Below, piece after piece: positions 3,757 through 20,133 of a DNA stretch of 32,339 nucleotides (its first letter is position 1; each line of letters opens with the position of its first letter). The DNA lies in the IMG/VR virus record IMGVR_UViG_2526164646_000008, positions 1-32,339 of that record, one strand, 5' to 3'. This DNA is from a virus. Taxonomy: Duplodnaviria > Heunggongvirae > Uroviricota > Caudoviricetes. The position numbers and the translations under genes are program-made. Under the pieces are notes generated by a model. It did no database searches, was not told where the DNA came from, and saw nothing but the letters and a program-made list of their open reading frames with translations.

Positions 3757-3831
<75 letters not shown>

Positions 3832-3834
3832 ATA

Positions 3835-3910
<76 letters not shown>

Positions 3911-3912
3911 GC

Positions 3913-3989
3913 TGGCCCACCACCGAGGACTCGAACCTCGGACCGTCAACTTAGAAGGTTGATGCTCTATCCGGATGAGCTAGTGGTGG
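3913..3989 (-). tRNA. tRNA-Arg (anticodon UCU), unusual C1:G72 acceptor pair
   Basis: Reverse complement CCACCACTAGCTCATCCGGATAGAGCATCAACCTTCTAAGTTGACGGTCCGAGGTTCGAGTCCTCGGTGGTGGGCCA; anticodon loop CTTCTAA; 1 nt from next tRNA. Confidence 0.65.
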
Positions 3990-3990
3990 T

Positions 3991-4066
3991 TGGTGGCCCT
4001 TGCTGGACTTGAACCAGCGACCTGGCGATTATGAGTCGCTCGCTCTCACCACTGAGCTAAAGGGCC
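3991..4066 (-). tRNA. tRNA with CAU anticodon, Ile2 (lysidine)-type, ileX/ileZ-like
   Basis: Reverse complement GGCCCTTTAGCTCAGTGGTGAGAGCGAGCGACTCATAATCGC...GGTTCAAGTCCAGCAAGGGCCACCA, near-identical architecture to E. coli ileX as recalled. Confidence 0.7.
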
Positions 4067-5827: not shown

Positions 5828-6646
5828 ATGTGTCAGGTATTTGGTGTATCCAGGAGCGGTTATTACAACTGGGTACAGCATGAACCCTCAGACAGAAAAC
5901 AAAGTGATGAGCGGCTAAAACTGGAGATTAAGGTGGCACATATCCGCACTCGCGAAACATATGGAACCCGGCGGCTCCAGACGGAGCTGGCAGAGAATGG
6001 CATCATCGTTGGTCGTGACCGACTGGCACGTCTTCGTAAGGAGCTGAGGCTACGCTGTAAGCAGAAACGCAAGTTCAGAGCGACTACGAACCCGAACCAC
6101 AATCTGCCAGTTGCGCCAAATCTGCTGAACCAGACGTTCGCTCCTACAGCACCAAATCAGGTCTGGGTGGCGGACCTGACGTATGTTGCCACACAGGAGG
6201 GATGGTTGTACCTCGCTGGCATCAAAGATGTTTATACGTGTGAAATTGTCGGCTACGCCATGGGAGAGCGCATGACAAAAGAGCTGACAGGTAAAGCCCT
6301 GTTTATGGCGCTCAGGAGCCAGCGCCCACCTGCCGGGCTAATCCACCACTCTGATCGAGGTTCACAGTACTGCGCATACGATTACCGGGTCATACAGGAG
6401 CAGTCTGGTCTGAAAACATCAATGTCGCGTAAAGGTAACTGTTACGACAACGCTCCGATGGAAAGCTTCTGGGGAACGCTGAAAAATGAGAGCCTGAGCC
6501 ACTATCGTTTTAATAACCGGGATGAAGCCATCTCAGTAATACGGGAATACATTGAGATTTTCTACAATCGTCAGCGTCGTCACTCTCGTCTGGGGAATAT
6601 CTCCCCGGCAGCCTTCAGGGAAAAATATCATCAGATGGCTGCTTAA
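5828..6646 (+). CDS. IS600 orfB transposase (DDE)
   Basis: 272-aa track ORF, identical to copy 3 orfB and 1 aa different from copy 2 orfB. Confidence 0.85.
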   Translation: MCQVFGVSRSGYYNWVQHEPSDRKQSDERLKLEIKVAHIRTRETYGTRRLQTELAENGIIVGRDRLARLRKELRLRCKQKRKFRATTNPNHNLPVAPNLLNQTFAPTAPNQVWVADLTYVATQEGWLYLAGIKDVYTCEIVGYAMGERMTKELTGKALFMALRSQRPPAGLIHHSDRGSQYCAYDYRVIQEQSGLKTSMSRKGNCYDNAPMESFWGTLKNESLSHYRFNNRDEAISVIREYIEIFYNRQRRHSRLGNISPAAFREKYHQMAA

Positions 6647-9854: not shown

Positions 9855-10019
9855 ATGGGCAATGTGATTCAACTGGCTCCCAATGAATGGGTTTGTGAAA
9901 GCGTTCTAATCGCAATTACCGGGCTCAAACCAGGCACAATTCTTCGGACCCGGAAAGAATGCTGGATGGTTGGAAGAGAGTATATTCACGTATCACCAGA
10001 CGGTAATCCAAAGCCTTCT
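9855..10019 (+). pseudogene. Excisionase-like gene, 3' end removed by IS911
   Basis: MGNVIQLAPNEWVCESVLIAITGLKPGTILRTRKECWMVGREYIHVSPDGNPKPSE then IS911-derived codons; homologous to the xis-like ORF at 22577. Confidence 0.45.
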
Positions 10020-10026
10020 GAAGTGG

Positions 10027-11195
<1,169 letters not shown>

Positions 11196-11324
11196 TGGAG
11201 CACCTGTGTTGTTCTGAGGTGAGCATATCACCTCTGTTCAGGTGGCCAAATTCAGTGTGCCACTTCAAATCTTGCCAGAGCTAGTATTGCACTGTCTGGC
11301 ATACACAATCGTTCCAGTAATCAA

Positions 11325-11561
11325 TTAGCGAGGTTCGCAGTCTTCACTTTGGAACTTAAACTTTTCTATCTCCGTGAGTTTTGCTTTGAGCGCAGCCTCA
11401 TTGCTTTTAGAGATTGTCAGCTCATCAATGAGAGACAAATATTCAAGCTGAATGCTTGACAACTTAGAGTTTATTTCAGACACAGCGCGATCAACCTCAG
11501 CCTGAGTTTTTGCTTCATTGAATAATTTTAACATTGATGCAGTCTCTTTGAGAGCTGACAT
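11325..11561 (-). CDS. Hypothetical coiled-coil protein (78 aa)
   Basis: Track ORF with protein-like heptad composition; no recognisable family. Confidence 0.35.
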   Translation of the reverse strand: MSALKETASMLKLFNEAKTQAEVDRAVSEINSKLSSIQLEYLSLIDELTISKSNEAALKAKLTEIEKFKFQSEDCEPR

Positions 11562-11788
11562 CGCTAATACATCACTTGCTCACTCTTCTTATTGTTGGGG
11601 TATTCAGATTATACAAATTTCTTGTTGTTGGGGAATAACAGGAACCACCTCGCCTGACGTAGTTAAAAGCAGGCACACAACGCGAAATGACGCGGCGGTA
11701 AGTATGGCGGAGTTATTCCTTCCCCGTTGAGGACACCGGGTTGTCAGGTTGACCATACGCTTAAGTGACAACCACGCCACAACACTCC

Positions 11789-11847
11789 ATGTTGATTGGT
11801 ACCTTTGGCGGCATCAGTTTCATTGCTGGCTGATGTCCGCCCTTTTT
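11789..11847 (+). ncRNA. dicF: DicF-like small RNA candidate with intrinsic terminator
   Basis: ttgattggtacctttggcggcatcagttt... resembles the 5' half of E. coli DicF (UUUCUGGUGACGUUUGGCGGUAUCAGUUUU) as recalled; ends in hairpin ggcgg-c-atcag/ctgat-gt-ccgcc (11807..11841) plus T5. Confidence 0.4.
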
Positions 11848-12143
11848 AAAGTGAATTTTGTGATGCGGTGAATGCGGCTGAGCGCACGCGGAACAGTTAA
11901 AAAGCGATTAGTTCCCACGTATCGGGTGGTTATGGGTTTCCCTGTATCCGGCGTTAATTGTTAACTGGTTAACGTCACCTGGAGGCACCAGGCACCGCAT
12001 CAACAAAGTTCACTTCGGTGATGAAAGGTAAGAGAAAATGTTGAATGTAGCTATTGAAAACCAGAACGGGTGGAATTATAGTGCATCTGCACCTCATAAA
12101 ACGGGGGCCGGGCGTGGAAACCCGAACGTTACTCGAGCGCATA

Positions 12144-12165
12144 GCCGCGCTGAAGCGGTTTTTTT
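12144..12165 (+). terminator. Short GC hairpin (ccgc-gctgaa-gcgg) followed by T7
   Basis: Seen directly; 4-bp stem, strong U-tract. Confidence 0.3.
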
Positions 12166-12967
12166 ATGCGTAATGCACAGCTCCATTCAAATTATGGTGG
12201 GATGTGCAGGGCAGTCGCAAGACTGGCCGGGTTCTCGAGTGACCGGTATTTCCACCCCTGTACGTCTCACCACCCTTATGGTCGTGGAAAACCTCGGTGG
12301 TGAGTTAATTAACTTATCACTCGAGGATGCCATCATGGCTACTATCCCTGCCCTTTCTCACCCTGACGTAACCATCGAAAACGGTCGCGCTGTCACTACG
12401 TCTGTTGCGGTTGCAGAGTTCTTCCACAAACGACACGACAATGTGTTACGTGCCATCGCAAATACTGAATGCTCACCTGAATTTAACGCCCTCAATTTTG
12501 AGGACGTCACCTACACCGACACCAAAGGCGAAAAACGCCCAATGTACCAAATCACCAAAAACGGCTTCGTTTTCCTGGTGATGGGCTTCACTGGGAAAAA
12601 AGCCGCTGCATTCAAAGAGGCCTACATCGCTGATGTTCGACCGCATGGAGGCAGAACTGCACCAGAATAATACCCCGTCCGCTGACAAGATGATTCCGGG
12701 TAACGGTCGCACTCTGGTTGTGCACTTCGACGAACACGGCAATATCAGATTCACCGAAACTGTTCCTGACGGTGCACTGGTCTGTACCCTGGATACTTTC
12801 CAGTTTTATCTGGAAAAACAGGGGTGGGCTCTTGTAAACCGGAGCGCAATTAAAAATATGACCGTAGAGCAGCTGCTAGACTGGCCCCCTGAATCTCCAG
12901 ACAACCAGTATCACTTATTTAAGTGATAGTCTTAATACTAGTTTTTAGACTAGTCATTGGAGAACAG

Positions 12968-13333
12968 ATGATTGATGTCTTAGGGCCGGAGAAACGCAGA
13001 CGGCGTACCACACAGGAAAAGATCGCAATTGTTCAGCAGAGCTTTGAACCGGGGATGACGGTCTCCCTCGTTGCCCGGCAACATGGTGTAGCAGCCAGCC
13101 AGCTATTTCTCTGGCGTAAGCAATACCAGGAAGGAAGTCTTACTGCTGTGGCCGCCGGAGAACAGGTTGTTCCTGCCTCTGAACTTGCTGCCGCCATGAA
13201 GCAGATTAAAGAACTCCAGCGCCTGCTCGGCAAGAAAACGATGGAAAATGAACTCCTCAAAGAAGCCGTTGAATATGGACGGGCAAAAAAGTGGATAGCG
13301 CACGCGCCCTTATTGCCCGGGGATGGGGAGTAA
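12968..13333 (+). CDS. insC: IS2 orfA (InsC)
   Basis: [56 protein letters not shown]... Confidence 0.85.
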
Positions 13334-14196
13334 GCTTAGTCAGCCGTTGTCTCCGGGTGTCGCGTGCGCAGTTGCACGTCATTCTCAGACGAACCGATGA
13401 CTGGATGGATGGCCGCCGCAGTCGTCACACTGATGATACGGATGTGCTTCTCCGTATACACCATGTTATCGGAGAGCTGCCCACGTATGGTTATCGTCGG
13501 GTATGGGCGCTGCTTCGCAGACAGGCAGAACTTGATGGTATGCCTGCGATCAATGCCAAACGTGTTTACCGGCTCATGCGCCAGAATGCGCTGTTGCTTG
13601 AGCGAAAACCTGCTGTACCGCCATCGAAACGGGCACATACAGGCAGAGTGGCCGTGAAAGAAAGCAATCAGCGATGGTGCTCTGACGGGTTCGAGTTCTG
13701 CTGTGATAACGGAGAGAGACTGCGTGTCACGTTCGCGCTGGACTGCTGTGATCGTGAGGCACTGCACTGGGCGGTGACTACCGGCGGCTTCAACAGTGAA
13801 ACAGTACAGGACGTCATGCTGGGAGCAGTGGAACGCCGCTTCGGCAACGATCTTCCGTCGTCTCCAGTGGAGTGGCTGACGGATAATGGTTCATGCTACC
13901 GGGATAATGAAACACGCCAGTTCGCCCGGATGTTGGGACTTGAACCGAAGAACACGGCGGTGCGGAGTCCGGAGAGTAACGGAATAGCAGAGAGCTTCGT
14001 GAAAACGATAAAGCGTGACTACATCAGTATCATGCCCAAACCAGACGGGTTAACGGCAGCAAAGAACCTTGCAGAGGCGTTCGAGCATTATAACGAATGG
14101 CATCCGCATAGTGCGCTGGGTTATCGCTCGCCACGGGAATATCTGCGGCAGCGGGCTTGTAATGGGTTAAGTGATAACAGATGTCTGGAAATATAG
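13291..14196 (+). CDS. insD: IS2 orfB (InsD transposase)
   Basis: 301-aa track ORF. Confidence 0.85.
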
Positions 14197-14664: not shown

Positions 14665-15039
14665 TTAACTGACTATCCGAAACTGAATTTATGCCAGCAA
14701 TGGCAGGGATTCGCTCAACCTTAATTAAGGAGAAAAACATGATTACCAGTTATGAAGCCACTGTTGTAACTACTGATGACATTGTTCACGAGGTTAATCT
14801 GGAAGGAAAGCGTATTGGCTACGTGATTAAGACAGAAAATAAAGAAACCCCATTCACTGTGGTTGATATCGACGGTCCATCAGGCAACGTTAAAACACTT
14901 AACGATGGTGTAAAAAAAATGTGTCTGGTGCACATAGGAAAGAATCTGCCCGCAGAAAAAAAAGCCGAATTTCTGGCAACTCTGGGTAATGCTGCCAACT
15001 TACTGATTTAGTGTATGATGGTGATTTTAAGGTGCTTGC

Positions 15040-15315
15040 GTGGCTTCCATTTCCATCAGATGTCCTTCCTGCTCCGCTACTGAAGGCGTGGTGCGTAACG
15101 GCAAAAGCACTGCCGGACATCAGCGCTATCTCTGCTCTCATTGCCGTAAAACATGGCAACTACAGTTCACTTACACCGCCTCTCAGCCCGGTACGCACCA
15201 GAAAATCATTGATATGGCCATGAATGGCGTCGGATGTCGCGCCAGTGCACGCATTATGGGCGTTGGCCTCAACACGGTTTTACGTCACTTAAAAAACTCA
15301 GGCCGCAGTCGGTAA
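15040..15315 (+). CDS. insA: IS1 InsA
   Basis: 91-aa track [43 protein letters not shown]... Confidence 0.85.
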
Positions 15316-15737
15316 CCTCGCGCATACAACCGGGCAGTGATGTGATTGTCTGCGCTGAAATGGACGAACATTGGGGCTACGTCGGTGCTAAATCACGTCA
15401 GCGCTGGCTGTTTTACGCGTATGACAGGATACGGAGGACGGTTGTGGCGCACGTCTTCGGTGAACGCACTCTGGCCACACTGGAGCGTCTTCTGAGCCTG
15501 CTGTCGGCCTTTGAGGTCGTGGTATGGATGACGGATGGCTGTCCGCTGTATGAATCACGCCTGAAGGGAAAGCTGCACGTTATCAGCAAGCGTTACACTC
15601 AGCACATTGAGCGACATAATCTGAATCTGAGACAACATCTGGCAAGGCTGGGACGGAAGTCACTGTCGTTCTCAAAATCGGTGGAGCTGCATGACAAGGT
15701 CATCGGGCATTATCTGAACATAAAACACTATCAGTAA
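15234..15737 (+). CDS. insB: IS1 InsB (InsAB' transposase made by frameshift)
   Basis: 167-aa track ORF. Confidence 0.85.
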
Positions 15738-15789
15738 GTTGGAGTCATTACCCAACTCTGATTGCAATGAAATTAAAAGGTGAAATCTG

Positions 15790-17361: not shown

Positions 17362-18180
17362 TTAAGCAGCCATCTGATGATATTTTTCCCTGAAGGCTGC
17401 CGGGGAGATATTCCCCAGACGAGAGTGACGACGCTGACGATTGTAGAAAATCTCAATGTATTCCCGTATTACTGAGGTGGCTTCATCCCGGTTATTAAAA
17501 CGATAGTGGCTCAGGCTCTCATTTTTCAGCGTTCCCCAGAAGCTTTCCATCGGAGCGTTGTCGTAACAGTTACCTTTACGCGACATTGATGTTTTCAGAC
17601 CAGACTGCTCCTGTATGACCCGGTAATCGTATGCGCAGTACTGTGAACCTCGATCAGAGTGGTGGATTAGCCCGGCAGGTGGGCGCTGGCTCCTGAGCGC
17701 CATAAACAGGGCTTTACCTGTCAGCTCTTTTGTCATGCGCTCTCCCATGGCGTAGCCGACAATTTCACACGTATAAACATCTTTGATGCCAGCGAGGTAC
17801 AACCATCCCTCCTGTGTGGCAACATACGTCAGGTCCGCCACCCAGACCTGATTTGGTGCTGTAGGAGCGAACGTCTGGTTCAGCAGATTTGGCGCAACTG
17901 GCAGATTGTGGTTCGGGTTCGTAGTCGCTCTGAACTTGCGTTTCTGCTTACAGCGTAGCCTCAGCTCCTTACGAAGACGTGCCAGTCGGTCACGACCAAC
18001 GATGATGCCATTCTCTGCCAGCTCCGTCTGGAGCCGCCGGGTTCCATATGTTTCGCGAGTGCGGATATGTGCCACCTTAATCTCCAGTTTTAGCCGCTCA
18101 TCACTTTGTTTTCTGTCTGAGGGTTCATGCTGTACCCAGTTGTAATAACCGCTCCTGGATACACCAAATACCTGACACAT
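17362..18180 (-). CDS. IS600 orfB transposase
   Basis: 272-aa track ORF. Confidence 0.85.
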   Translation of the reverse strand: MCQVFGVSRSGYYNWVQHEPSDRKQSDERLKLEIKVAHIRTRETYGTRRLQTELAENGIIVGRDRLARLRKELRLRCKQKRKFRATTNPNHNLPVAPNLLNQTFAPTAPNQVWVADLTYVATQEGWLYLAGIKDVYTCEIVGYAMGERMTKELTGKALFMALRSQRPPAGLIHHSDRGSQYCAYDYRVIQEQSGLKTSMSRKGNCYDNAPMESFWGTLKNESLSHYRFNNRDEATSVIREYIEIFYNRQRRHSRLGNISPAAFREKYHQMAA

Positions 18181-18517: not shown

Positions 18518-18904
18518 TATTAGCTCCTTCTGATGCCATTCTATTTCAGGAAGGAGTGTCCGTTAAACTCAGGCTACCTCAGAGCGCTTATCCGATTTTT
18601 GATCGTATTGAAGAAATGGCATGGGCTCGTCACTACCAGCAGATCGTTCGTGAAGAAAAAGAAACGGAACTGGCGGACGACCTGGAAAAAGGTCTGCCTC
18701 AGCACCTGTTTGAATCGCTCTGCATCGACCATTTGCAACGCCACGGTGCCAATAAACAGGCAATCAGCCACGCATTTGATGATGATGTTGAGTTTCAGGA
18801 GCGCATGGCAGAACACATCCGGTACATGGCTGTGAAGTGGCACACTGAATTTGGCCACCTGAACAGAGGTGATATGCTCACCTCAGAACAACACAGGTGC
18901 TCCA

Positions 18905-20073
<1,169 letters not shown>

Positions 20074-20133
20074 CCACTTCACTGAAACCATTGCCCACCA
20101 CCAGGTTGATATTGATTTGGAGGACTAAAATCT

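Follow-up and report, generated by a model that had tools for sequence, protein, structure and literature searches.

DicF is among the few prophage small RNAs (sRNAs) for which effects on host division, on host metabolism, and, in EHEC, on virulence have been proven. The canonical RNA is a proven trans-acting, Hfq-dependent sRNA, whose 3' region pairs with the ribosome-binding site of ftsZ and whose 5' end pairs with xylR (PMC5069750). In K-12 it derives solely from the dicBp polycistron, from which RNase III yields a 190-nt species and RNase E a 53-nt species; no internal DicF promoter was found, and some of the operon transcripts stop at the DicF terminator (PMC10448788). A comparative analysis of 2016 was based on dicF copies more than 99% identical, and a survey of 27 genomes scored dicF as lost in Shigella lineages. 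A regulatory RNA can also arise as a by-product of termination elsewhere in phage operons, as with StxS from the PR' terminator of Stx phage (PMC7547250). StxS offers an analogy of mechanism only: it differs from the RNA described below in operon, sequence, and targets, and the two are not homologous.

We analyzed a stretch of 32,339 nt that makes up a caudoviricete record of IMG/VR (IMGVR_UViG_2526164646_000008), here called the window. An earlier note, made from the sequence alone, had pointed to a DicF-like sRNA candidate in it. The segment ttgattggtacctttggcggcatcagtttc (positions 11792 to 11821) was said to match about 22 of 30 positions of the DicF 5' half, and ungapped comparison with the annotated dicF of K-12 (L001:2383-2435, of which 2383-2412 is the 5' half) gave exactly that figure. 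The parts of the RNA, all on the plus strand, are the following.

11794-11847: DicF-like RNA core, designated allele DD, from Rfam model match, fold, and terminator scan.
About 11792-11806: single-stranded 5' segment, UUGAUUGGUACCUUU.
11807-11819: 5' arm of the hairpin, GGCGGCAUCAGUU.
11820-11827: hairpin loop of 8 nt, GUUUCAUUGCUGG.
11828-11835, 11836, and 11837-11841: 3' arm of the hairpin, consisting of GGCUGAUG, a bulged U, and CCGCC.
11843-11847: U5 tail, preceded by a C.

The strong intrinsic terminator described in the note was confirmed. The hairpin has 13 bp and a minimum free energy of -21.0 kcal/mol (z of -3.47), none of 200 shuffled sequences was as stable, and the terminator scan picked it out as well. 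It is a Rho-independent terminator of the DicF kind, closed by GGCGG/CCGCC and followed by a U tract. A permissive covariance model scan of 501 nt (11560 to 12060) matched the DicF family (RF00039) to 11794-11842 on the plus strand with 38.8 bits and an E-value of 5.1e-7, which by arithmetic corresponds to about 3e-5 for the whole window. The match covers the full length of the model (positions 1 to 52 of 52). The covariance model search that the note had suggested thus returned a significant DicF match, but one that lies below the family's gathering score of 48. At gathering threshold, the Rfam matches reported for the window were ALIL, C4, isrK, and four tRNAs, with no DicF among them. The resemblance to DicF is therefore real and far beyond chance, and it is subthreshold for the curated family. 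An open reading frame of 40 codons across the hairpin (11749-11871) was considered as well and rejected: it starts with TTG, it reads through the terminator, and indels break its conservation between alleles.

With the DicF of the K-12 Qin prophage (RF00039), the window RNA has in common the operon slot, the invariant flanks, and the frame UUUGGCGG...CCGCCCUUUUU. In both, the terminator hairpin forms the sRNA 3' end and a 5' segment of about 13 to 15 nt is free. The 5' seed and the hairpin interior, in contrast, have been replaced, and the model score is 38.8 bits against 76.7 bits for K-12. The hairpin of the window is also stronger than that of canonical DicF (-21 versus -15.9 kcal/mol), and only the 8-nt loop is exposed in it.

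The flanks of the core establish what kind of locus this is. A megablast search with 11560-12340 showed that 11681-12012 resembles the dicF region of many phages, with an identity of about 84%. In phage Tritos, which is among them, this feature bears the annotation "DicF antisense sRNA". When the region was aligned with K-12 Qin, Tritos, and E. coli VL7S7, a divergent core appeared between near-invariant flanks. The window segments 11681-11790 (about 110 nt) and 11848-12012 (about 165 nt) are, in their invariant blocks, 97 to 100% identical to the flanks of K-12 dicF, and in an alignment of 11 sequences comprising all allele types these invariant blocks are 96 to 98% identical pairwise. In the same alignment, pairwise identity falls to 49% in the DicF 5' block and to 60% in the hairpin block; for the window against K-12 the values are 29% and 51%, respectively. 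The divergence of the 3' half noted earlier is borne out: the part that pairs with ftsZ is replaced. The 5' seed has diverged too, with loss of the xylR-type pairing.

Identical or near-identical cores are present in intact prophages of E. coli P393-F10 and 06-00048, where the gene order is repressor, ydaF/ydfB-type genes, the RNA, dicB, DUF1482, exonuclease, xis, and int. The identical core is also found at loci L039 and L124 and at other loci. The locus is accordingly that of the dicBF operon, with conserved precursor flanks and with the same allele 5' of dicB in intact prophages. Because position and flank synteny are conserved, homology to dicF is settled, and the window RNA is, by sequence comparison, a positional homologue (an allele) of dicF. 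The alignment with dicF copies of other prophages, which the note had listed among its checks, is what supplies this proof.

The invariant flanks are structured in part, and on the plus strand they comprise two blocks.

11681-11790: conserved upstream block, equivalent to the 5' part of the 190-nt DicF precursor of K-12, from blastn and alignment.
11848-12016: structured domain directly after the terminator, equivalent to the spacer between dicF and dicB, from fold and consensus fold.

Homology of the upstream block to K-12 Qin, VL7S7, and phage Tritos starts abruptly at 11681 in all three blastn comparisons. According to the alignment fold, the helix predicted to close this upstream domain is disrupted in the window: the 5' strand that it needs falls outside the stretch of homology, which begins at 11681. 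The downstream domain folds with -69.2 kcal/mol (z of -4.23), a stability that none of 200 shuffles attained. Its closing helix is a long-range one with about 22 bp, formed by about 11849-11870 with about 11993-12016; in the consensus fold, an 18-bp helix is retained in 9 to 11 of the 11 sequences. As modeled, this closing helix could be a substrate of RNase III. The downstream domain, as opposed to the DicF-like RNA itself, weakly matches STnc100 (RF02076) in the window and in the K-12 spacer. The score for 11854-12007 is 36.5 bits, below the gathering score of 47 for membership in that family, and subthreshold matches of 31 to 36.5 bits were obtained for the window, for K-12, and for all other alleles. 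The larger conserved structured region contains three variable blocks, of which the two others are as variable as the DicF core. One of them is a small upstream hairpin in columns 60 to 82 of alignment A2 (about 11712-11727 of the window), which varies among alleles; by eye its changes preserve pairing, with GGGG/CCCC in most sequences and GAGG/CCUC in L161.

To survey the variation of the core, we scanned IMG/VR, along with one genome for each species, with anchored patterns, and obtained 206 copies with 45 unique cores; conserved flank anchors were required, which biases the survey to loci with invariant flanks and partly builds in the invariance of the anchors. The 5' modules were A (canonical, UUUCUGGUGACGUUUGG), B (UUGAUUACCUUUUGG), and D (window, UUGAUUGGUACCUUUGG), and the hairpin modules were A, B (with three subtypes), C, D, and F. 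Among the 45 unique cores, the combinations AA, AC, AF, BB, BD, and DD were observed. BD joins the B 5' module to exactly the D hairpin module of the window, and AC joins the canonical 5' module to another hairpin; these mixtures show that the modules recombine. The B and D 5' modules have UUGAUU...ACCUUU in common, and that of the window differs by an extra GGU (UUGAUUGGUACC versus UUGAUUACC). The hairpins of BB are U/C-rich, unlike the D hairpin, and the DicF model is blind to them. The alleles BB, BD, AC, and AF occupy the same operon slot as DD, and ydfABC upstream and dicB downstream were found in every allele class across the 206 anchored copies. Judging from these comparisons, there are six or more discrete dicF alleles, the window allele among them; their 5' and hairpin modules are exchangeable and their flanks invariant.

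All 45 unique cores end in a terminal hairpin followed by U4 to U6. Stems of 13 bp occur in 19 DD and 22 BD copies, the stems of these two alleles having -18 to -21 kcal/mol, and the alignment fold retains the outer GGCGG/CCGCC pairs in 10 to 11 of the 11 sequences. RF00039 scored AA (K-12) with 76.7 bits, AC with 43.5, DD with 38.8, and BD with 34.1, and BB and AF had no match to the DicF model at E < 0.1; only the canonical allele exceeds the Rfam gathering score. In 5,426 complete E. coli genomes, the canonical core was present in 3,947 (core-only search), the D-hairpin core (at least 80% coverage) in 62, and the B1 core in 132. We discarded missing RefSeq annotation as a sign of an overlooked allele; canonical dicF is likewise unannotated as an ncRNA in most RefSeq records of E. 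coli.

One relative illustrates how alleles are exchanged. E. coli ECMA0423 (L224, CP178302; 2370-2880, minus strand) is identical to window positions 11560-12060 outside about 11695-12010, and within these limits its sequence is a dicF patch of canonical type, in which several indels occur that may be assembly errors. The DD allele is retained in three other relatives (L039, L178, and L213). The comparison of ECMA0423 with the window is direct evidence that recombination inside the conserved flanks has swapped one allele for another in a single genomic background, through a gene-conversion patch of about 320 bp.

We then compared the window allele with canonical DicF for pairing with the published target sites. 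Whole-length RNAduplex calculations against 160-nt targets were rejected, as they gave unrealistic long-range duplexes and no discrimination; instead, pairing was scored by a windowed local duplex scan, with z calculated against 40 shuffles. With canonical DicF, all four published sites were recovered.

ftsZ, -29 to -7, with DicF nt 32-53: canonical z of -1.30, window allele z of +0.68.
xylR, +7 to +20, with DicF nt 6-18: canonical z of -2.45, window allele z of +0.19.
pykA, -26 to -4: canonical z of -2.43, window allele z of +0.52.
manX, +34 to +53: canonical z of -4.35, window allele z of +0.59.

For the window allele, pairing with ftsZ, xylR, pykA, and manX was at chance level and no better than that of shuffled sequences, and its best duplexes lay off-site and often involved nucleotides of the stem. 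The scan has low power, giving canonical DicF with ftsZ a z of only -1.3 and failing to lift known sites above shuffles over long targets. In computational terms, the complementarity of DicF to the ftsZ ribosome-binding site and to xylR, pykA, and manX is absent from the window allele. Loss of these four pairings is predicted, and so is an altered target set, a possibility that the note had raised. Because both pairing segments are replaced, the canonical targets should no longer be repressed.

The D and B seeds showed no pairing above shuffles with the dcw cluster, minCDE, or manXYZ, a weak negative in that known sites fail likewise. Phage-encoded targets were sought in two intact prophages as well as in the window, and none exceeded chance. 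The top-ranking candidate, which lies in the exonuclease gene, pairs with the D loop at -26.5 kcal/mol; it was set aside as probably coincidental, being present 3' of every allele class with no covariation. This site, GCCAGCGATArTGAAACTGGC, is conserved coding sequence (L124, 9553-9578; L125, 9523-9548).

The surroundings of the window copy differ from those of intact prophages, and the following features flank it.

9855-10052: fragment of an unrelated excisionase gene (DUF1233) to the left of IS911, from Pfam.
About 10004-11267, minus strand: IS911, 98.7 to 99% identical to an annotated "IS3-like element IS911", with Pfam HTH_Tnp_1 at 10893-11231.
12089-12165, plus strand: isrK, from Rfam (59.6 bits, above gathering).
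12190-12277, plus strand: C4 antisense RNA in the leader of the Rha gene, from Rfam (76.7 bits, above gathering).
12335-12926, plus strand: gene for a Rha-family regulator, with Pfam Phage_pRha (1.8e-28) on 12335-12670.
12923-14196, plus strand: IS2, given as the span of its open reading frames, with the element ends slightly outside; 99.4% identical to K-12 IS2E over 13502-14159.

The IS911 that the note saw cutting the upstream operon is thus in place. Both ydfABC and the operon promoter region are absent from the window, and IS911 marks the rearrangement that took them out. Between IS911 and the start of operon homology lies a different segment (11268-11680) with a 78-aa open reading frame on the minus strand. 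This frame (11325-11561) encodes a coiled-coil-like protein with no Pfam match. A segment at about 11582-11687 recurs 5' of dicF in many other prophages. At the junction at 11268, the window has a complete IS911, whereas L224, L213, L178, and L039 have only a 64-bp end of IS911 followed by 307 bp that are absent from the window; the rearrangements associated with IS911 are therefore different ones. On the plus strand between IS911 and the RNA, the sole promoter-like site is at 11414-11443, with a match of 9 of 12. Since the only known operon promoter is gone, expression of the sRNA from the window copy is doubtful.

Downstream, the Rha gene begins at 12335, 488 nt 3' of the RNA and in agreement with the roughly 490 bp given earlier. 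It is frameshifted near 12630-12670, where two open reading frames overlap in different frames, and it is truncated by IS2; homology to the Rha gene of E. coli VL7S7 stops at 12871. VL7S7 has the same isrK/C4/Rha module, placed there after the dicF allele and before dicB. The module is an optional insert between dicF and dicB that is found in a minority of prophages, 3' of AA, BB, and DD alleles, and its combination of isrK, C4, and Rha gene resembles an antisense-controlled regulator module of the P1/P7 immI-like or Gifsy type. With tblastn, neither DicB nor YdfD had a match in the window. The statement that no dicB-like gene follows is right for the window, but it fails as a trait of the allele, which elsewhere lies directly 5' of dicB. 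An IS1 follows IS2, and the exonuclease gene is a fragment.

Taken as a whole, the content of the window is what one typically meets in a decayed prophage of a Shigella/EIEC-like genome. Insertion sequences are very densely packed in it and include two copies of IS911 (10004-11267 and about 18833-20082), IS2, and three copies or fragments of IS1 (14983-15752, 22918-23685, and 32090 to the end). A transposase open reading frame of 272 aa is present in three copies (5828-6646, 17362-18180, and 31184-32002), and an ALIL frameshift pseudoknot is located at 21601-21717 on the plus strand (120 bits). The sitABCD genes for an iron/manganese transporter (24810-28234, plus strand) have 99.6 to 99.7% identity to their counterparts in several E. 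coli strains; they are set among IS elements, adjoining the prophage remnant. A phage-borne cluster of four tRNA genes (Gly-TCC, Thr-TGT, Arg-TCT, and Met-CAT; 3757-4066, minus strand) adjoins homologues of the lambdoid Q antiterminator and RusA.

How should such an RNA be understood? That an unrelated terminator hairpin merely happens to look like DicF is a negligible prospect. Its score does fall under the Rfam gathering threshold, but the match spans the entire model with an E-value near 5e-7, other genomes contain this core in their dicBF operon too, and the synteny of two flanks that are both near-identical to the dicF locus refutes the idea. We likewise consider it very improbable that the allele is a functional DicF which still inhibits division through ftsZ by a different or weaker pairing, even though it occupies the dicF slot adjoining dicB in intact prophages, keeps a GUUUC complementary to GAAAC just 5' of the ftsZ start codon, and has 7 nt, AUUGGUA, that match UACCAAU at ftsZ +20 to +26. 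Pairing with ftsZ -29 to -7 depends on a 3' arm and on a CUCC anti-Shine-Dalgarno element, both of which are lost. The best pairing with the initiation region of ftsZ reaches -17.7 kcal/mol, whereas the shuffles average -19.7 (z of +0.68) and 30 of the 40 are at least as good; this pairing lies away from the ribosome-binding site and uses nucleotides of the stem. Across the dcw cluster nothing rose above chance.

The element might also be no sRNA at all and act in cis only, as a terminator or attenuator that gates read-through into dicB, exonuclease, xis, and int, with no role in trans; the core would then vary since just a hairpin and a U tract are needed. We judge this unlikely, though it is the main rival. 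It would account for the GC-closed hairpin and U tract that every allele has around an interior free to vary, for the like behavior of the two other variable blocks of the region, and for the failure of our scans to find a target of the D allele, and a share of K-12 operon transcripts does end at the DicF terminator. Against it, the alleles are discrete, each conserved across prophages at different sites (ompW and yccA), where drift would leave a continuum. The single-stranded 5' segment, which termination does not need, is conserved within each allele, and the canonical DicF of the same locus is the proven trans-acting, Hfq-dependent sRNA.

The reading we prefer, with a probability of roughly 60%, is that the window RNA is a rare, seed-swapped dicF allele on the chassis of a terminator-derived sRNA, stranded in the window without promoter or dicB. 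The allele would belong to the early-left (dicB) operon of lambdoid prophages, with the operon transcript terminating at the hairpin. By analogy with K-12, RNase E or RNase III would trim the 5' side of the transcript, and the released RNA would pair with the assistance of Hfq through its free 5' segment and its loop. It would not repress ftsZ, xylR, pykA, or manX and would act on other RNAs instead. The interchangeable modules would pass between prophages via recombination in the nearly invariant flanks. The window copy would be a stranded relic, whose promoter-bearing upstream part was replaced through the rearrangement associated with IS911. With this part replaced, dicB missing, and the Rha gene broken, the RNA is probably made at a low level at most. 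Whereas homology, position, the hairpin, the allelic series, and the loss of complementarity are demonstrated, processing, dependence on Hfq, and action in trans of the window allele, as well as its silence in the strain from which the window comes, are what we infer for it. The core being one of three variable blocks, its variability may reflect tolerance and not selection for new targets.

A more far-reaching proposal, which we put forward only tentatively, is that the dicF slot of lambdoid prophages serves as a site for cassettes. Short gene-conversion patches would bring swappable seed modules (three or more for the 5' part, at least five for the hairpin) into a processing scaffold that is itself conserved. 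Different prophages would in this way supply different host-targeting sRNAs from one operon position, and the window allele would be functional, with new targets other than ftsZ. The series would be invisible at the Rfam threshold and may have counted as "dicF absent" in surveys of Shigella and E. coli. A search of the literature with exact sequence strings and for variant or "DicF-like" dicF alleles turned up no description of them in what is searchable, and an earlier mention is still possible.

The window copy itself carries small biological weight because it belongs to a decayed, IS-ridden prophage. What matters is the series to which it belongs: published work has treated dicF as essentially one sequence, and there are several discrete dicF alleles in which the segments for target recognition are replaced and the processing scaffold is invariant. 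If these alleles are active, surveys that score presence or absence of the canonical sequence would undercount the dicF family, and prophages would be turning one conserved sRNA chassis against a changing set of host genes.
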